A stretch of DNA of 64,000 bases, taken from Thermoanaerobaculia bacterium (GTDB lineage: Bacteria; Acidobacteriota; Thermoanaerobaculia; UBA5066). Position numbers and translations under genes: made by a program. The stretch lies in NCBI GenBank assembly GCA_038245905.1, contig JBBRRY010000004.1:64001-128000 (forward strand), given 5' to 3'. Positions 1 to 7,482 of this stretch are shown in pieces. Under the pieces are notes generated by a model. The model saw nothing but the letters and a program-made list of their open reading frames with translations. It did no database searches and was not told the DNA's origin. Numbering within the stretch: position 1 is the stretch's first letter; each line of letters opens with the position of its first letter.

Positions 1-1718
1 CTTCGAAAGGGAGTGAGAGCCACGGCCACGCGTCCGGGCGAGACCTCGCCTCCGAGAATGGCGCCCGCGGCTGGACCGAGCTCGATCGAGCGCGCGGGCG
101 ATCTTTCACCCTCCAAGAAAATTTTCAGAATTCCCTTCCCATCCGCAACGCCGGCCACCGCCATGCGGCCGCCCGACAGGAACCTCACTCTCGGCGCCTC
201 GAGATCCTCCGAGAGCGTCATGAGGTGCGCGCCTGTCCGCCCGTCGTGGAGCGTCAGGATCTGGGGCGCCGACGGGTCGTCTTTCGTTCGCCGCGTCCCG
301 ACAAGGAACCGCGCGTCTGCACTCAGGCGCAGGAACGGGAGGGTCCCGGGTTCGAACCGGCCGGTCACGAGGGATTTCTTCGAAGACAGGGAGAACTCGG
401 TGATGTCGAGTCTTGCCAGGTCCAGGCCCTTGACCTGTGTGTTGAAGAATCTCGGAAAGGCGCGAATCGTGTCCTCGTCGACGAACGTGTACCGGAGGTC
501 TCTCGCGATACGGAAGACGGCGATCTGCTTCGGGTTCCCGGCGTCTGACACGTCGAAGGCCGCGAGCGTCTTCCCGTCGAAGGACGCGAGGCGCCGGCCG
601 CTGGGCGAAAGGGCGAGCGTGGCCCAGCCCGCGGGCTCGAGGCCCGTCGCGACTGGACGGCCCGCGGAGAGGTCGGCGACGAAGAGGTCGAGCCTGTTGT
701 CCTTCATCTCGAAGAATCCGAATCGAGGCTCGCCCCACGCGGCGCGGGTGCCGTCCGCGGAGAAGGCGACGGTCCCGTCCCACGAGAACGGACACTTGAC
801 GAATCGGCCCGACATCGCGTCGAAGATGAACGAGGCCTCGGCGGAGCCGCGAGAGCGCACCGCCCCGGCGACGCCGACCCACGTACCATGCGGGGCCGCC
901 TGGATGCCATCGACGTGTACGAGGTCTTTCGGTGTGGCCGCGTTCACCCACAGGGCGAGGCCGCCGAGCGGAAGGGCGAGCAGAGCCGTGAGCCCCCACA
1001 GAGTCACCGACAGCGCGCCATGCGAGCGCCGCGCGTCCGTCCTCCCGTCGGCCACCTGCATGTAACTGGCGGCGAGGAGAGCGGTGATGAGCGGAGCGGC
1101 CAGCCACCAGGCGAGCCACTCGGGCGAATGTTTCATCTCGTAGAGGTTCCAGAAGCCGGCGAGGAAAAGACTTCGGAGGGAGAGAGCGATCAGGGCGGCG
1201 AACAAGGCGGCCAGAAGAAAGTCGAGGACGATCCAGGCCGACCGCAGGCGCACCATCGAAGAGAACGTGTGTGCCCCGGCAAGGAGCAGAAGTGTCGTGA
1301 GGACGAAGTAGACAGTGGCCGGGCCCGAAGTATCGAATGCGGCGAAGGCTCGTTTCCCGTCGACGAGAATCGTCGGGATGGCGGCGAGGCAGGCTCCGGA
1401 AACCGAGATGAAGAGAGCTCCAAGCAGCTTTCCGGCCCAGATCGAAACCGGGGGTAGCGGCCGCGAAAAATAGAATGCGATGCGCTTCTGGGTGATTTCG
1501 GAGACCAGGATCGTGGCACCGAACGCGATTGGAAATGCCACGGCGATCGTGAGGGCGAGGTAGAACGCGGCCACGAAGCGGACATCACGCGCCCCTGCGC
1601 CGCCCAGGCCTGGAAGAAACGGCAGGGTGAGCGGCAAGAGGCCCACCAGCAGCGTTCCGAGAAGAACGAGTCTCCTCTCGACGATCTCCCGCGCCGCGAC
1701 GGCGAGCGTGGTTTTCAT
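1..1718 (-). CDS. ABC transporter permease-like membrane protein with C-terminal soluble (possibly beta-propeller) domain; runs off the left edge
   Basis: Not in the ORF track; translated by hand from ATG 1718 (ATGA overlap with the ATPase stop). MKTTLAVAAREIVERRLVLLGTLLVGLLP..., FYFSRPLPPVSIWAGKLLG (ABC-2-type signature), several TM segments, then AFSADG/ALSPSG/LSADAR repeats. I saw no stop before the edge. Confidence 0.75.
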   Translation of the reverse strand, partial: MKTTLAVAAREIVERRLVLLGTLLVGLLPLTLPFLPGLGGAGARDVRFVAAFYLALTIAVAFPIAFGATILVSEITQKRIAFYFSRPLPPVSIWAGKLLGALFISVSGACLAAIPTILVDGKRAFAAFDTSGPATVYFVLTTLLLLAGAHTFSSMVRLRSAWIVLDFLLAALFAALIALSLRSLFLAGFWNLYEMKHSPEWLAWWLAAPLITALLAASYMQVADGRTDARRSHGALSVTLWGLTALLALPLGGLALWVNAATPKDLVHVDGIQAAPHGTWVGVAGAVRSRGSAEASFIFDAMSGRFVKCPFSWDGTVAFSADGTRAAWGEPRFGFFEMKDNRLDLFVADLSAGRPVATGLEPAGWATLALSPSGRRLASFDGKTLAAFDVSDAGNPKQIAVFRIARDLRYTFVDEDTIRAFPRFFNTQVKGLDLARLDITEFSLSSKKSLVTGRFEPGTLPFLRLSADARFLVGTRRTKDDPSAPQILTLHDGRTGAHLMTLSEDLEAPRVRFLSGGRMAVAGVADGKGILKIFLEGERSPARSIELGPAAGAILGGEVSPGRVAVALTPFR

Positions 1719-2659
1719 GTGTTCCTCCCCGGCGACGCTTCGCCCGCGACGGCGACAAAGATCTCCTCGAGGGACAGGGCGGAAGCCTCGGCGTCCACGA
1801 CGCCCTCCTTGGCCGCGAAGCGCGCGAACGCCTCGTCGCCGTAATTCGAGACGACCGCTTCGACGCCCCAGCCCCGCACCTTCACCTTCACCGCGTCGAA
1901 ATCGGAGAGCTCCTGGCCGTAGAGAGCCGGGTCCTCGGTCTGTTCGTTCGCGTAGCGCAGGCGCCGGAAGCGTCCTTTGAGCGTTTCGAGGTCCTCGTCG
2001 AGAACGAGCCTGCCGCCCTTGAGCATCCCCACTCGGTCGGCCATCTTCTCGACGCCTGACAGATCGTGCGAGGTGAGAAGAACGGTCGTCTCCCGGTCGG
2101 CCAGCTCGCCCACCAGCTCGTCGAAGAACGCCGCGCGCGCCACGGCATCGAGGCCCAGCGTTGGATCGTCTAGCAGCAGGAGTTCCGGCGACGATCCGAG
2201 CGCCAGCGAGAGCGACACGAGGGCTTTCTGGCCCTTCGAGAGGCTGCCGAAGAGAGTGTCCGGGGGGACTCCGAATCGGCGAAGCCTGTCGAAGACGGAG
2301 GCGTCGTTCCAGCGGGGGTAGAGTCGCGAGAAGAAAGCCGAGAGTTGGCGCGCCGTCATCGAGGGCGGCGCGTCCGGATCCTCGGGGACGACGCCGGTCC
2401 TTGCCATCAGGAGTGAGCGGTGTTTCCAGACGTCCTCGCCGAAGAGGAAGCACTTCCCGGACGACGGCTTCTGCTGGCCGAGGAGGCAGCGCACGAGAGA
2501 GGACTTCCCCGCGCCGTTGCGCCCCAGGAGGCCATAGACGGAGCCACGAGGGATGGAGAAAGAGACTTCTTCGAGCGTAGGAGAAGGGTTGCCGCCGTAC
2601 TTCACGAGGAGGCTCTTGACCTCGACCACGGCAGCCTCGTTTCCGCGCATGCCGTTCAT
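1715..2659 (-). CDS. ABC transporter ATP-binding protein (YtrB-like)
   Basis: Walker A GRNGAGKS, signature LSKGQ, Walker B LLLLDDP, H-loop SH. Confidence 0.93.
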   Translation of the reverse strand: MNGMRGNEAAVVEVKSLLVKYGGNPSPTLEEVSFSIPRGSVYGLLGRNGAGKSSLVRCLLGQQKPSSGKCFLFGEDVWKHRSLLMARTGVVPEDPDAPPSMTARQLSAFFSRLYPRWNDASVFDRLRRFGVPPDTLFGSLSKGQKALVSLSLALGSSPELLLLDDPTLGLDAVARAAFFDELVGELADRETTVLLTSHDLSGVEKMADRVGMLKGGRLVLDEDLETLKGRFRRLRYANEQTEDPALYGQELSDFDAVKVKVRGWGVEAVVSNYGDEAFARFAAKEGVVDAEASALSLEEIFVAVAGEASPGRNT

Positions 2660-3063
2660 TTCACCCCTCCGTCCCTCTTCCTTCTAAGAAATCCCAGACT
2701 GCGTTCCACGCGACCCATCGCATCCTCGTTCGTCGCGCCGAGCGTGACCGCAAGGCTCGCGTAGCGCATCGCGCCCCCCTCCAGGTCCTTCTCGCGCTCG
2801 CCTCGCGCGAGCGCGGGCGGCTTCTCGGCGACGAACGTCCCTTCGCCTCGCTTTACGTCGAGAACCCCGGCGTCTACGAGGCGCTGGTAGCCCTTTGCGA
2901 CGGTCGCGGGGTTGATCGACAGGTCGCGAGCGAGGTCACGCACCGAAGGCATGACAGAGCCGGGCTTCATCGCTCCCGACGCCACGAGCCGCCGTACGTT
3001 GTCCTCGATCTGCCGCCAGAGGGGGACGGCGTCGGAGGGGTCGACCTGCAGTCCGCGAGTCAT
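2656..3063 (-). CDS. GntR-family transcriptional regulator (YtrA subfamily)
   Basis: PLWRQI...MPSVRDLARDLSINPATVAKGYQRL...RGEGTFV winged HTH with a short C-terminus; first gene of an ABC operon. Confidence 0.93.
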   Translation of the reverse strand: MTRGLQVDPSDAVPLWRQIEDNVRRLVASGAMKPGSVMPSVRDLARDLSINPATVAKGYQRLVDAGVLDVKRGEGTFVAEKPPALARGEREKDLEGGAMRYASLAVTLGATNEDAMGRVERSLGFLRRKRDGGVK

Positions 3064-3074
3064 CCCTTACCGCC

Positions 3075-3125
3075 TCGGTGTATCATTACACCGATACAGT
3101 ACGGACGCCGACGCCTTCCTGTCAA
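3075..3125 (-). promoter_or_regulatory. sigma70-type promoter and palindromic operator for the GntR-ABC operon
   Basis: Minus strand TTGACA (3120-3125), 18 nt spacer, TACTGT (3096-3101), then inverted repeat TCGGTGTA-N4-TACACCGA (3075-3094). Confidence 0.7.
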
Positions 3126-3158
3126 GGGTTTCGCGCGAATTAAATCAAACGGGCCGGG

Positions 3159-3998
3159 TCAGGGGTTCGTCTGGCGCCTGAGCGCGTCGAACTTCAGGAG
3201 GTCGGCCAGGAACTTCGGAAGGATCGCGAGTGGAAGCTGCGTGGCCTTGTCGGACTTCGCGGCGGCGGGATTGTCGTGGACTTCGAAGAAGTAGCCGTCC
3301 ACGCCGACCGACGCCGCCGCCCGGACGAGAGCAGGAGCGTATTCGCGCGAGCCGCCTGTCTCTTTGCCGAGGCTGCCCGGAAGCTGAAGGGAGTGCGTCG
3401 CGTCGTAGATCACGGGAACGCCGAGCGACCGCATCATGGGGAGGCCTCGGAAGTCTACGACGAGGTTGTGATACCCGAAGCTCGTGCCGCGCTCGCAAAG
3501 CATGACGTTCGAGTTCCCGGCGGAATGGCACTTGTCGACGATTTGCTTGCAGTCGTCGGGCGCCAGAAACTGTCCCTTCTTGACGTTCACGGCCTTCTTC
3601 GTGGCGGCCGCCGCCATGATGAGGTCGGTCTGCCGGCAGAGGAACGCGGGGATCTGGAGGACGTCGGCCACTTCGGCCACGAGCGCGCAGTGCTCGGGGT
3701 CGTGGACGTCGGTCAGGACAGGCAGGTCGGTCTTCTCCTTCACCTCCGAGAGGATCGCGAGCCCCTTCTCGATGCCAGGCCCCCGGAAGCTGGCCCCGGC
3801 GGAACGGTTCGCCTTGTCGAACGAGGATTTGTAGACGAGCCGGTCGGCGACCCCGGCGTCCGTGAAGACCTTTTTCAGCTCTTTCGCCATTTTCAGGGCG
3901 TGCGCCCGCGACTCGATGACGCACGGGCCCGCAAAAAAGACGGGGCGACAGCGGTCGCCGACGGAAAGGTGCGGCGTGATCGAGGCGAAGACGCGCAT
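3159..3998 (-). CDS. kdsA: 3-deoxy-8-phosphooctulonate (KDO8P) synthase
   Basis: AGPCVIES, KSSFDKANRS, LQIPAFLCRQTDL, NVKKGQF, CERGTSFGY, DATHS motifs. Confidence 0.97.
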   Translation of the reverse strand: MRVFASITPHLSVGDRCRPVFFAGPCVIESRAHALKMAKELKKVFTDAGVADRLVYKSSFDKANRSAGASFRGPGIEKGLAILSEVKEKTDLPVLTDVHDPEHCALVAEVADVLQIPAFLCRQTDLIMAAAATKKAVNVKKGQFLAPDDCKQIVDKCHSAGNSNVMLCERGTSFGYHNLVVDFRGLPMMRSLGVPVIYDATHSLQLPGSLGKETGGSREYAPALVRAAASVGVDGYFFEVHDNPAAAKSDKATQLPLAILPKFLADLLKFDALRRQTNP

Positions 3999-4035
3999 GT
4001 GCAGGCCAGTCTAGCGTGACCGCGGGAGCCGCCGC

Positions 4036-4782
4036 TCAGGGCTTGTGCGCGACGAGGTAGTGGTCCATCCGGTCGGCGCGCCGCTGGACGTCCGCCAGGC
4101 CTTCGGCGGCAAGCCAGGCCTCGACGTCGGAAAGGGCGTATCGCTCGTGGACGCCCGGCGAGACGGTGTCGAAGTACTCGAGGATCTCGCCGGGCGGCGC
4201 CACGGCGCGGAGGGCCTCGACCTTCTCGGGAAAAGTAAGGGGTGCGACGCGCGCCCGCCAGGCCTCGACGCCGGCGACCTCCTGCTCGTCAGTCGGACAG
4301 CCCGGCCTTGGCCGGCCGTAGAGCATCAGGAAGAGGACGCCTCCGCGGCGGAGGGAGGCCACCAGCCGCGCGAGCGAACCGCGGACGTCGCCGGTGTGGT
4401 GAAGCACCCCGAAGCTCCAGACAAGGTCGAAGGACGCGCCCACGGCCAGCGGGGCGAGGAGGTCCGCGGCGAGCGCCCCGCGGAAACCGGGGAGGCCCGT
4501 GCAGGCCGCCCGCGTCGCCAGGAGGGCGGGGAGCGAGCGGTCGACCGCGAGGACACGCGCCCCGAGCCGGCAGAGCGCCCAGGTGTGACGGCCGCATCCG
4601 CAGCCCGCGTCGAGCGCGTCGCGCCCCGCGAACCACTCCGGAGGCCGGCCGACCCACTCGGCCACGAGCCCGGGCAGCTCCTCGCGGAACTCCGGGCTCG
4701 CGAGCGACCACCGGTTCTGGGGGAGCCGCGACCACTGGTAGTCGAAGCTCGCGCGCGTCTGGAGGACGTCCAGATCGGTCAT
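4036..4782 (-). CDS. class I SAM-dependent methyltransferase
   Basis: Motif I LDAGCGCGR, AVDRS, FDLVWSFGVLHHT, LRRGG. Start ATG 4782 chosen because it lies 19 nt after the precursor stop. Confidence 0.88.
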   Translation of the reverse strand: MTDLDVLQTRASFDYQWSRLPQNRWSLASPEFREELPGLVAEWVGRPPEWFAGRDALDAGCGCGRHTWALCRLGARVLAVDRSLPALLATRAACTGLPGFRGALAADLLAPLAVGASFDLVWSFGVLHHTGDVRGSLARLVASLRRGGVLFLMLYGRPRPGCPTDEQEVAGVEAWRARVAPLTFPEKVEALRAVAPPGEILEYFDTVSPGVHERYALSDVEAWLAAEGLADVQRRADRMDHYLVAHKP

Positions 4783-4801
4783 CGCGGCGTCGGCGGGGAG
4801 G

Positions 4802-5164
4802 TCAGCCGTGGCCGAGCTGCTTGTTCGGACCGGCGAAGCCGCCGCCGAGCTGCTGCGCGCCACCGAGCTGCTGCATGCCTCCGAGCTGGGCGCCTCCGAG
4901 CTGCTGGTGGCTCATGCCGCCCGCCACCTTGTCGAGGTCCTGGTCGACGAGCTCACCGCCAGGGAGAGGCGGCAGAACGAAATGGCGCGTGCCCGCCGTG
5001 TCCTCGACGAAGCGCACGCTCACGCCCTCCGAAAGCCGGATTCCGACCCCGGCGAGCGCCTCGTGCGGCGCGGAGAGGAGGCGGGCGCGAAACGCGGGGT
5101 CCGATGCCGCCTTCGATTCGATGGACGCGAGCGCTTCGGGGGAGATCACGTCACGAAGGCCCAT
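4802..5164 (-). CDS. NHLP (nitrile hydratase-like leader) RiPP precursor with (Q)QLGG-repeat core
   Basis: KAASDPAFRARLLSAPHEAL...VRFVEDT...HFVLPPLP..ELVDQDLDKVAGG leader; strong RBS AAGGAGG; 37-aa core after GG. Confidence 0.88.
   Translation of the reverse strand: MGLRDVISPEALASIESKAASDPAFRARLLSAPHEALAGVGIRLSEGVSVRFVEDTAGTRHFVLPPLPGGELVDQDLDKVAGGMSHQQLGGAQLGGMQQLGGAQQLGGGFAGPNKQLGHG
4811..4906 (-). repeat. imperfect tandem repeat CAGCAGCTCGGNGGC encoding (Q)QLGG
   Basis: Four QLGG units plus a terminal QLG(H)G, visible on the plus strand as repeated CCGAGCTG(CTG). Confidence 0.8.
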
Positions 5165-5285
5165 TTCGTCCTCCTTGATTCCGGGTCGGGTCGGCTCGCA
5201 ATTGAGACTCTATCAGGTTCGGAAGCGGAACCGCCCCACTCCCCCGGAAGGAGCCCGCCGGCCTCAGAATGGCCTGAGAGGGAAC

Positions 5286-5777
5286 ATGTCCATCCGCATT
5301 CTCGTGACCGGCGGGACCTTCGACAAGGAATACGACGAGTTGACGGGCCGCCTCTATTTCAAGGACACGCACATCCAGGAGATGCTGCGGCTCGGCCGCT
5401 GCCGCGTGCCGGTGGCCGTCGAGACGGTGATGATGAAGGACAGCCTCGAGATGATTCCCGGGGATCGCGAGACGATCGCCTGGCGCTGCCGGGAGGCCGC
5501 GGAAAGCTGGATCGTCGTCACGCACGGCACCGACACGATGGTCGAGACGGCGGCGATCCTCGCCGAGGCCGAGACGGGGAAGACGATCGTCCTGACGGGC
5601 GCCATGGTGCCGTGGGCGTTCGGCAGCTCCGACGGCCTCTTCAACCTCGGGAGCGCATTGTCGTTCGTCCAGGTCCTACCGCCGGGCGTCTACGTCGCCA
5701 TGAACGGCCGCTGCTTTCCGTGGGACGACGTCCGGAAGGACCGCGAGCAAGGAGTCTTCGAGAGGATCGAACGGTAG
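5286..5777 (+). CDS. short asparaginase-domain protein (N-terminal catalytic domain only)
   Basis: TGGTFDK, THGTDTM, VLTGAMVP, SDGLFNLG motifs; 163 aa from ATG 5286. Confidence 0.9.
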   Translation: MSIRILVTGGTFDKEYDELTGRLYFKDTHIQEMLRLGRCRVPVAVETVMMKDSLEMIPGDRETIAWRCREAAESWIVVTHGTDTMVETAAILAEAETGKTIVLTGAMVPWAFGSSDGLFNLGSALSFVQVLPPGVYVAMNGRCFPWDDVRKDREQGVFERIER

Positions 5778-5817
5778 GGCGTTCCGCCACAGGAGGGTTC
5801 GGCCGCAGAATGCAACC

Positions 5818-7482
5818 ATGAGTAAGCCCATCACATCTCCATTCACGGGCCTCGGCCTCGACGCCCGGCTCGTGAGTGCGCTCGTGGCCCTGGGCTACGA
5901 AGAACCCACCCCCATCCAGAGCGCCGCGATCCCGCCGCTCATCGAAGGCCACGACGTCTTCGCACAGGCCGCCACCGGTACCGGGAAGACCGCCGCATTC
6001 GCGCTCCCGATCCTCAACGCAATGGCCGCTCCTTCCGAAAGGGGAGTCGCCCCTTCCGCCCTCGTCCTCGTGCCGACCCGGGAGCTCGCGATGCAGCTCG
6101 CGGAGGCCGTACACAAGTACGGCCGGGAGATGAACGTGAGGGTGCTTCCCGTATACGGGGGAGCCTCGATGGAGACGCAGCTCCGGGCTCTCAAGCGCGG
6201 AGTGGACGTCGTCGTCGCGACCCCAGGGCGCGCGCTCGATCACGTCAACCGGAAGTCGCTCGCGCTCGGAAGTCTCAAGACGCTCGTCCTCGACGAGGCC
6301 GACGAGATGCTCGACATGGGCTTCGCGGAGGATCTCGACGCGATCCTCGCGGCGACGCCGAAGACGCGCCAGACGGCGCTCTTCTCGGCGACGCTTCCGC
6401 CCCGTATCGCGACGCTCGCGGCCCGCCACCTTCGTGACCCGATCCGGATCGCGATCGAGAAGGAAAAGACCGCTCCGGGGAAGATGCCGAAGGTGCGGCA
6501 GACGGCGTACGTCGTCGCCCGCGGCCACAAGCGCGCGGCACTCGGCCGCATCCTCGACCTCGAAAGCCCGGCGGGAGCGCTCGTGTTCTGCCGGACGCGG
6601 ATCGAGGTCGACGACCTGACCGAGAGCCTCAAGGGCCGCGGGATGCGGGTCGAGGCGATGCACGGCGGGATGTCGCAGGAGCAGCGCGACCGCGTCATGA
6701 AGAAGTTCCGCGCCGGGACGCTCGAGCTCCTCATCGCGACGGACGTGGCCGCGCGGGGCCTCGACATCGGGCATCTCTCGCACGTCGTGAACTATGACGT
6801 GCCGTCGTCGCCGGAGGTGTACGTCCACCGCATCGGCCGAACCGGGCGCGCCGGGCGGGAGGGCGTCGCCATCACTCTTGCGGAGCCCCGCGAGCACTGG
6901 CAGCTCAAGAACATCGAACGCCTCACGAAGCAGAAGATCGAGATCGCGAGCGTCCCGACCGTCGCGGACCTCCGCGCGAAGCGCCTCGAGCTGACGCGGG
7001 CGTCGCTCCGCGAGTCGATCCTCAAGGGAGGCCTCGACGACTATCGCGTCGTCGTGGAGTCGCTCGCCGAGGAGTTCGATCCGATGGACGTGGCCGCGGC
7101 AGCCGTGAAGCTGGCCGACCCGGCGGCCGAAGGCTCCGGCTCGGTCGGGGACGAGCACGAGATCCCGGCGATCGCCGCGGCACCGCCCGCGCGCGCGAAA
7201 GCGGGCCCGAAGTACCAGTCCGGGGGACGCGAACCCGGCAACTCCGCACGCATCTTCATCGGCGCCGGGCGCGCCGCGGGCGTCCGCCCGGGAGACCTCG
7301 TGGGCGCCATCTGCAACGAAGCCAAGGTCAGCCCGAAGGACGTCGGCTCGATCCAGATTGCCGATCGCTTTTCGCTCGTGGAGATCTCCGAGGCGCTCGT
7401 CGAACCGGTCATGAAGGCGCTCCGGGGCACGATGATCCGCGGCCAGAAGGTCGTCGTGAAGCGCGACCGCGTCGGGGGATAG
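5818..7482 (+). CDS. deaD: DEAD-box RNA helicase, DeaD/CsdA-like with C-terminal DbpA-type RNA-binding domain
   Basis: Q motif, ATGTGKT, PTRELA, DEAD, SAT, ARGLD, HRIGRTGRAG; C-terminal RPGDLVGAICNE. Confidence 0.88.
   Translation: MSKPITSPFTGLGLDARLVSALVALGYEEPTPIQSAAIPPLIEGHDVFAQAATGTGKTAAFALPILNAMAAPSERGVAPSALVLVPTRELAMQLAEAVHKYGREMNVRVLPVYGGASMETQLRALKRGVDVVVATPGRALDHVNRKSLALGSLKTLVLDEADEMLDMGFAEDLDAILAATPKTRQTALFSATLPPRIATLAARHLRDPIRIAIEKEKTAPGKMPKVRQTAYVVARGHKRAALGRILDLESPAGALVFCRTRIEVDDLTESLKGRGMRVEAMHGGMSQEQRDRVMKKFRAGTLELLIATDVAARGLDIGHLSHVVNYDVPSSPEVYVHRIGRTGRAGREGVAITLAEPREHWQLKNIERLTKQKIEIASVPTVADLRAKRLELTRASLRESILKGGLDDYRVVVESLAEEFDPMDVAAAAVKLADPAAEGSGSVGDEHEIPAIAAAPPARAKAGPKYQSGGREPGNSARIFIGAGRAAGVRPGDLVGAICNEAKVSPKDVGSIQIADRFSLVEISEALVEPVMKALRGTMIRGQKVVVKRDRVGG

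Follow-up and report, generated by a model that had tools for sequence, protein, structure and literature searches.

A two-gene insertion in a Thermoanaerobaculia genome

A 64,000-nucleotide (nt) stretch of DNA from a Thermoanaerobaculia bacterium (hereafter the window, which lies on contig C4 of a 3.8-Mb assembly that is 96.4% complete) carries two adjacent minus-strand genes, one encoding a precursor with a nitrile hydratase-like leader peptide (NHLP) and the next a class I S-adenosylmethionine (SAM)-dependent methyltransferase (Table 1). An initial annotation had read the pair as a minimal unit, and possibly as an undescribed class of peptides made on ribosomes and modified after translation (RiPPs) in which the methyltransferase acts repeatedly on glutamine-rich repeats. 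Here, we follow the pair across genome collections, describe a core motif that accompanies the enzyme, and propose that the two genes form a satellite to a ribosomal peptide system of the NHLP type, their peptide being methylated at that motif, a chain of claims that, taken loosely as a whole, we hold with about even confidence.

Table 1. Features of the two-gene locus and its flanks (window coordinates)
Feature	Position	Strand	Remarks
NHLP-leader precursor gene	4802..5164	-	120-amino-acid (aa) open reading frame (ORF); stop codon 4802-4804
Precursor leader	residues 1-83, nt 4916-5164	-	ends VAGG
Precursor core	residues 84-120, nt 4805-4915	-	five Q-L-G motifs
AAGGAGG, Shine-Dalgarno-like	5170..5176	-	5 nt 5' of the precursor ATG; seen by eye in the sequence
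Tandem DNA repeats encoding core (A/M)Q(Q)LGG units	4840..4906		Tandem Repeats Finder: period 15/18 nt, score 85, 3.9 copies
Spacer, precursor stop to methyltransferase ATG, 19 nt	4783..4801	-	without a clear Shine-Dalgarno sequence
Class I SAM-dependent methyltransferase gene, 248 aa	4036..4782	-	ATG at 4782, stop 4036-4038
Inserted two-gene segment	3999..5285		between kdsA and the short asparaginase-like gene
kdsA	3159-3998	-	left flank of the insertion
Short asparaginase-like gene, 163 aa	5286-5777	+	right flank of the insertion

The ORF, its strong ribosome-binding site, its 83-residue leader and its QLGG-bearing core are all as the initial annotation described them. The NCBIfam model of NHLP leaders, TIGR03793, scores the precursor at 61.2 bits, above its cut-off of 50.9, aligning residues 12–83 with positions 6–77 of a 77-position profile, and so upholds the leader identity proposed at the outset; the Pfam model NHase_alpha also exceeds its cut-off (29.0 against 27.2). 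The leader closes with ELVDQDLDKVAGG, and the double glycine that ends it (G82 and G83) is invariant in 13 of 13 aligned precursors. Judged by its sequence, the 120-aa ORF is a genuine NHLP family member, carrying every NHLP feature that we looked for. The 37-aa core, MSHQQLGGAQLGGMQQLGGAQQLGGGFAGPNKQLGHG, contains no Cys, no Thr and a single Ser, in line with the earlier remark that the core suits neither azole nor lanthionine chemistry, and no YcaO match was found at the level of Pfam models anywhere in the 96.4%-complete genome. When the residues of this core were shuffled, at least five Q-[L/I/M]-G motifs arose in none of 10,000 trials.

The methyltransferase follows on the same strand at the distance first reported. 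We placed its start at the ATG rather than at the GTG of a longer frame that opens at 4863 because homologues begin there, and the lack of a clear Shine-Dalgarno sequence in the spacer suggests an operon with coupled translation. Three Pfam models exceed their cut-offs (Methyltransf_11, 50.1 bits; Methyltransf_12, 48.2; Methyltransf_25, 42.1), and the glycine-rich SAM loop DAGCGxGR is invariant in the aligned family members. An AlphaFold2 model from a 108-row alignment (mean pLDDT 96.6, pTM 0.93) has the class I fold, and a Foldseek search with it returned generic class I methyltransferases only, at template modelling (TM) scores of ~0.5–0.6; the sugar O-methyltransferases AtmM and RebM came top (TM ~0.55–0.6) and LahSB, a RiPP C-terminal methyltransferase, ranked 13th. 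A profile search of the PDB with the enzyme family matched the Rossmann core only, with CypM and LahSB among the matches, and an ESM Atlas search returned unnamed Methyltransf_11 clusters only. NCBIfam holds no equivalog for the enzyme (best match 32 bits against a cut-off of 155), and the daptide methyltransferase model NF041820 reaches 26 bits against a cut-off of 175. As the matches from PDB, Foldseek, NCBIfam and ESM Atlas are all generic to class I, we dropped them as a guide to substrate chemistry. Co-folding of the enzyme (108-row alignment) with the precursor (13-row alignment) and SAM gave a score of 0.01 against a mark of 0.32, which weighs neither way on binding.

The pair recurs as a linked unit

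We scanned genome collections with a family alignment of 24 methyltransferase members. Species-representative genomes gave 129 pattern matches, of which 116 were confirmed and 78 loci kept, and a metagenome collection gave 391, of which 321 were confirmed and 80 loci kept. With a hidden Markov model (HMM) built from four leaders of the analysed loci, an NHLP gene was detected in 10 of the 158 methyltransferase-family loci, and in all ten it lies directly upstream of the enzyme on the same strand. Precursor stop and enzyme start are separated by -1, 0, 3, 16, 18, 18, 19, 19 and 27 nt in nine loci, the window's spacing being 19 nt; one further locus, with the same enzyme as locus L012, has only 108 nt upstream and was not scorable. 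TIGR03793 exceeds its cut-off at the pair locus in five of five other pair-bearing genomes. Within the window's genus, methyltransferase orthologues are present in two of 24 genomes sampled, at 96% and 71% identity, both with an NHLP gene directly upstream. A third match in the genus, 33% identical over residues 11–154, proved to be a different enzyme.

In a quick IQ-TREE phylogeny of 121 distinct family rows (excluding identical duplicates and rows below 250 bits or 200 profile positions, a coverage rule that also left out the truncated L106), all nine NHLP-linked rows form one clade with a Shimodaira-Hasegawa-like approximate likelihood ratio test (SH-aLRT) support of 98 and no unlinked row within it. 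The linkage label requires a single change on this tree, and none of 500 label shuffles scored as low. The co-occurrence with NHLP peptides for which the initial annotation had proposed to search is thus found. As grounds for refutation it had named closest homologues confined to polysaccharide or other loci with no peptide neighbour, and this applies by half: homologues below ~48% identity sit in other loci, many of those being of polysaccharide type and none having a detected NHLP gene, whereas every closer homologue that could be scored has one.

When all ORFs of the linked loci were clustered, nothing apart from the methyltransferase, the precursor and their antisense shadow ORFs recurred in all six lineages. 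The window's genus has kdsA, the short asparaginase-like gene and a DEAD-box helicase as flanks. Two Vicinamibacterales genomes have an extracytoplasmic function (ECF) sigma factor, an ORF that no Pfam model matches, a cyclase-family gene and a gene for a PSD1-domain protein, and another pair-bearing genome has PadR with a large (968-codon) upstream ORF. The pair recurs in soil and sediment Acidobacteria and is not a chance neighbourhood.

We considered the cyclase-family gene as a third member of the module and rejected it, as it is found in three lineages only, at differing distances and on differing strands, and the window genome's sole copy lies on contig C34. Such PF04199 genes are seen within 1–3 kb of the pair in three of the six lineages (L013 5655–6431, L015 1230–2087, L037 453–1301 and L097 1–296, all on the minus strand), the L013 and L015 copies being 36% identical to each other; their proximity to the pair is probably coincidence.

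A glutamine motif marks the linked cores

Comparison of the peptides revealed a single recurring element. The motif Q-[L/I/M]-G is found in 10 of 10 linked cores, in one to seven copies, and in none of eight distinct unlinked NHLP cores from the same genomes. Linked cores range in length from 11 residues (AGPQQLGRRGA) to 50, and single-motif cores of 11–13 aa exist. In 10,000 shuffles of each core, the observed motif count was never reached for the four richest cores, was reached in ~0.2–0.3% of trials for two, and in 3–5% for the four single-motif cores. Only two residue types, Gln and Gly, occur in all ten; Cys occurs in none, and at least one core is without Arg, at least one without Lys, and likewise for His, Ser/Thr and Asp/Glu.

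Copy number and sequence both vary among close relatives. The 96%-identical relative (genome G019, locus L011) has seven Q-L-G motifs against the window's five, and His takes the Gln position in several repeats of the 71%-identity sublineage, which read SHLGG. A precursor-profile search of 1.84 billion representative proteins returned 7,912 matches at E ≤0.001, and among the nearest single-domain matches to the leader profile two proteins, P0131 and P0143, have repeat cores of the same kind. We also observed that most of the best leader-profile matches (P0128–P0274) are proteins of 150–330 aa with two to four tandem NHLP-like stretches.

The enzyme belongs to a family found largely in polysaccharide-type loci

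Members of the methyltransferase family outside the linked clade show 33–47% identity across nearly the full length. Their 123 loci without an NHLP gene comprise 85 whose enzyme has an N-terminal, coiled-coil-like extension and 38 with short forms, which have a C-terminal extension and stand in the tree as the sister clade of the linked enzymes. Most of these relatives differ from the window enzyme by an extension at one end or the other. Asparagine-synthase-like neighbours are found at 38 of the 85 loci in the first group and at 21 of the 38 with short forms (59 of 123 in all) against none of the ten linked loci, and unlinked loci also have glycosyltransferase, epimerase/dehydratase and polysaccharide-deacetylase neighbours. 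No sugar gene adjoins the pair in any of the ten linked loci.

Conservation within the family as a whole reaches 97% or more at 28 positions, including an N-terminal QTxASFDYQW, GVLHHTG, Y155, R176 and FDAxSP, and only five positions (S26, F100, G102, A105 and D240) carry a residue that is invariant among the linked enzymes and uncommon outside their clade. Because the remaining family sits largely in polysaccharide-type loci, the methyltransferase appears to have been recruited from such loci to the peptide, with its chemistry largely kept.

In some sister-clade members, from Gemmatimonadaceae and one Pyrinomonadaceae, the methyltransferase lies in a frame of ~480–520 aa (L062 3965–5455, L047, L060, L064 and L065). 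Pfam matches in the L062 protein are confined to the methyltransferase domain, and its C-terminal half is without a match.

The pair resembles a satellite of a larger NHLP system

The window has no YcaO, LanM, radical-SAM or C39 gene at the Pfam level, as the initial annotation had stated, and the genome-wide search that it suggested for C39 transporters located a three-gene NHLP export system on another contig. The sole Peptidase_C39 match in the genome lies on the 7-kb contig C64, within a set that scores 1079.9 with TIGR03796 (cut-off 853.3), 893.8 with TIGR03797 (709.4) and 200.9 with TIGR03794 (156.2), the last gene being cut by the contig end. The sole LanC-like domain lies on contig C74 within a 1234-residue frame, which we regard as a LanM-like gene, and none of the 24 Radical_SAM matches in the genome is on contig C4. 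Four NHLP precursors are encoded in total: the one in the window, two in tandem on contig C79 and an isolated one on C28.

Because the export and cleavage system, the LanM-like gene and three other NHLP precursors are encoded elsewhere, the pair is not self-sufficient and has the look of a satellite to a larger NHLP system. The description of the pair as minimal therefore stands insofar as only two genes are common to the linked loci, and fails insofar as the exporter lies on C64. Peptidase_C39 is present in five of five other pair-bearing genomes and, within the genus, in seven of 24 genomes, both pair-bearers included; as pair-bearing genomes are related, this co-occurrence does not amount to an independent test.

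The two tandem precursors on the 2.9-kb contig C79 (1844–2302 and 2372–2821, plus strand) are Gly-rich and contain Cys. Together with the LanC-like domain at 961–2016 (minus strand) of C74 and the exporter at 626–6912 (minus strand) of C64, they resemble pieces of a classical NHLP lanthipeptide-type system and may be a single locus split by assembly. The isolated fourth precursor (C28 27893–28228, minus strand) has the core AGGTTRGGRTTDIDPGVKTAVDL, and by eye its neighbours look like a pair of small antitoxin/PIN-like genes on one side and an amino-acid permease on the other, with no tailoring enzyme close by.

A model for the modification and its alternatives

In the model that we favour, the precursor would be made with its 83-aa nitrile hydratase-like leader and a core of Q-[L/I/M]-G motifs, and the co-transcribed class I methyltransferase would methylate the core in the cytoplasm, most likely on the amide nitrogen in the side chain of each motif's Gln. 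A core with one motif would be methylated once and a repeat core several times, after which an NHLP export system encoded elsewhere in the genome would cleave behind the double glycine of VAGG and export the peptide. The parts of this model differ in strength. That the peptide is the substrate is very probable, given the tight coupling of the genes, the clade-specific association and the lack of any other shared gene. Export and cleavage in trans by the C64 system are likely, as judged from co-occurrence. We lean slightly towards the motif as the methylation target, because it is the only feature common to the linked cores, is absent from unlinked ones and varies in copy number. The Gln side-chain amide nitrogen as the methylated atom is a tentative choice, held with less than even confidence. 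It is favoured because only Gln side chains, backbone amides and termini occur in all cores, because a His in place of Gln also puts a nitrogen at the epsilon position, and because the iterative N-methylation of Asn side-chain amides on NHLP-type precursors by PoyE and AerE, as described in two reports (PMC11285071, PMC9060474), provides a precedent.

Several observations pull in the other direction. The Q/H argument is weak, since a Q-to-H replacement is a single-base change, and the motif has exceptions: one sequence has NKLLG where others have NKQLG, and P0142, a near relative by its leader, has QQLR in place of Q-L-G. With 28 near-invariant positions shared across the family and five specific to the clade, the chemistry is probably the parent family's own, and fold matches that are generic and led by sugar O-methyltransferases make the fold no pointer to amide N-methylation. 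Enzymes of the PrmC/HemK type use an NPPY-type motif; neither NPPY nor DPPY of this type is present in the 248-aa sequence, and the enzyme reaches only 11.8 bits with the PrmC model TIGR03534, whose cut-off is 199.1. Kinship of the enzyme to PoyE or AerE beyond the common fold is hypothetical, and its fold neighbours are mostly O-methyltransferases. We infer the Gln-amide target from sequence and analogy. As for the linkage, the leader HMM was built from four leaders only, so divergent precursors beside other clades may escape it; the tree is a quick version; and the linked set is small and related, its six lineages apparently all being Acidobacteriota where named.

Other uses of the same two genes have to be weighed against these points. 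Methylation of a peptide terminus, with the repeats serving the activity of the peptide, would draw on a fold that the terminal RiPP methyltransferases LahSB (rank 13 in Foldseek) and CypM share, and every core has termini whatever its composition. The C-terminal carboxylate, giving a methyl ester, would be the likelier end, as the N-terminal amine is free only once the leader is removed; C39 ATP-binding cassette (ABC) exporters cleave during export, which places the free N-terminus beyond the reach of a cytoplasmic enzyme. The terminal residues themselves vary, however (G, Q, L or A at the C-terminus, and M, F or A at the start of the core), and terminal methylation leaves both the restriction of Q-[L/I/M]-G to linked cores and the expansion in motif number unexplained, so that we consider it unlikely. 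Methylation of backbone amides inside the Q-L-G motif, in the manner of borosins, is very unlikely in our estimate: such amides do occur in all cores and the conserved Gly after a hydrophobic residue would give steric access, but the backbone N-methyltransferases of the OphMA/borosin family have a fold that differs from class I Rossmann enzymes such as the one modelled here, and the alternation of Q and H at one position suggests a role for the side chain.

It is also conceivable, if quite unlikely, that the two genes merely travel together and that the enzyme acts on a small molecule or glycan, with the NHLP protein exported unmodified, processed by the LanM-like enzyme or serving another role. 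The asparagine-synthase-like neighbours at nearly half of the unlinked loci, the glycosyltransferases, epimerases and deacetylases at several, and the 28 positions held in common with polysaccharide-type relatives speak for a non-peptide substrate, and the genome does contain a LanM-like gene. Against this, in six lineages whose flanks are unrelated and have no sugar gene nearby, the two genes are strictly linked, lie on one strand and almost overlap, and the clade-specific association is hard to account for without a functional tie; lanthionine rings, in turn, are impossible in the linked peptides because none of the ten cores contains Cys. Finally, the repeat cores might be multi-copy precursors from which the C39 peptidase frees each ...QLGG unit, methylated or not. 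Repeat units ending in GG, the difference of five and seven motifs between close relatives, and the 11–13-aa single-motif cores would fit such release, which is nonetheless highly improbable: the internal units appear to lack the hydrophobic -4/-7 leader context of DLDKVAGG, and GR, GS, GI or GA takes the place of GG at the end of many repeats from other lineages.

A bolder version of the favoured model, in which methylation falls on the Gln amide, would make the pair a new RiPP class whose sole modification is iterative N-methylation of Gln side-chain amides (His in some) in Q-[L/I/M]-G units, by an enzyme recruited from a family of polysaccharide-type loci. We regard this as doubtful. Because about half of the family adjoins asparagine-synthase-like amidotransferases, the parent enzymes may methylate carboxamide or amidine nitrogens of sugars; were the pair a new class, the peptide clade could, with similar reservation on our part, have retained this chemistry and exchanged the scaffold. 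A further lead, N-methylacetimidoyl sugars, was dropped when the literature search found no paper on a methyltransferase for them.

Relation to known systems

The nearest parallels are the polytheonamide and aeronamide pathways, which likewise combine a long NHLP-type leader, a class I SAM methyltransferase and a repetitive core (PoyA/PoyE and AerA/AerE). There the target is Asn (D-Asn for AerE, after a radical-SAM epimerase) and the cluster is large, whereas here Gln is the shared residue, two genes make up the pair and contig C4 has no radical-SAM gene. By analogy, the pair would work most like the PoyE/AerE step of a proteusin pathway stripped of everything else. PoyE and AerE were not among the best 60 of 143 PDB profile matches, nor among the Foldseek matches listed.

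Judged by the defining enzymes, the system falls outside three established classes. Proteusin maturases are not seen, with no radical-SAM gene on C4 and only two genes common to the linked loci; the lack of Cys in ten of ten linked cores, with the LanC-like domain on C74, speaks against a lanthipeptide; and the lack of a YcaO match in the genome speaks against a thiazole/oxazole-modified microcin (TOMM) or other azol(in)e peptide. CypM and LahSB share the class I fold and are likewise small tailoring enzymes that adjoin their precursors, but they act on the termini of already modified peptides, and the window enzyme matches them over the Rossmann core only (E ~1e-9 to 1e-12 over ~100 residues, TM ~0.5). 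PrmC/HemK, a class I enzyme that methylates the side-chain amide of a Gln beside glycines (GGQ), according to one account (PMC9060474), offers a chemical likeness; its substrate is a folded protein, and the window enzyme, without its motif, is not a member.

With the NHLP/Nif11 systems of Haft et al. (2010; PMC2887384), the pair shares the leader, its double-glycine end, the placement of precursors far from the exporter and the presence of several paralogues per genome. That work tied an export system to NHLP precursors by phylogenetic profiling and recorded some NHLP genes without known maturases. The leaders it describes accompany cyclodehydratases and LanM, whereas here a methyltransferase is the sole linked enzyme; methyltransferases receive a single mention there, in a list of proteins that by themselves are no marker of a cluster (PMC2887384).

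A search of largely open literature, at the level of main texts, found no published NHLP precursor whose only partner is a class I methyltransferase, although an earlier description is possible. In the same scope no Gln methylation in a RiPP was found, 'methylglutamine' appearing only for methyl-coenzyme M reductase, and the words 'glutamine', 'Gln' and 'NHLP' are all absent from a 2024 review of methyltransferases in RiPP pathways. The pair is thus probably an undescribed, very simple modified-peptide pathway. What is new is an NHLP-leader RiPP set apart by a new enzyme clade and a core motif, and this is a well-supported lead rather than established new chemistry. The suggestion of an undescribed RiPP class survives in that no published description was found, but the pair is closer to a satellite of a larger NHLP system.

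If methylation at the motif proves true, the pathway would rank among the simplest for a RiPP, with one precursor, one enzyme and a shared exporter; methylation of Gln would join the RiPP repertoire; and a widespread, uncharacterised methyltransferase family of polysaccharide-type loci would gain its first function. The natural series of cores, from an 11-residue single-motif peptide to one with seven motifs, offers ready substrates for studies of recognition and processivity. The pair would also illustrate how a leader-peptide system can capture a tailoring enzyme in the form of a small mobile insertion.

The insertion site and its neighbours

In 11 of 12 relatives' loci the site is empty, with the start codons of the divergent kdsA and asparaginase-like genes 37–45 nt apart, and the pair is therefore an insertion of ~1.3 kb. 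A promoter scan of 3900–5400 returned no sites, and one terminator-like site was found against 0.8 expected by chance, which is uninformative.

The asparaginase-like gene is present in 23 of 24 same-genus genomes against two of 24 for the methyltransferase, a distribution that excludes it as a third gene of the module. The similarity of its protein to type I asparaginase and GatD is confined to their N-terminal part, with 64 bits where the cut-off is 260, and its conservation indicates that the product is a short stand-alone asparaginase-like domain.

The twelfth relative (L172, genome G008) has an unrelated 507-nt insert at the same site (1990–2496), with a small minus-strand ORF whose product looks secreted by eye; small insertions may thus have arrived at this site repeatedly. 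In L173, L180 and L181 the asparaginase-like gene is separated from the DEAD-box helicase by ~700 nt, against ~40 nt in the window, which points to another small variable insert.

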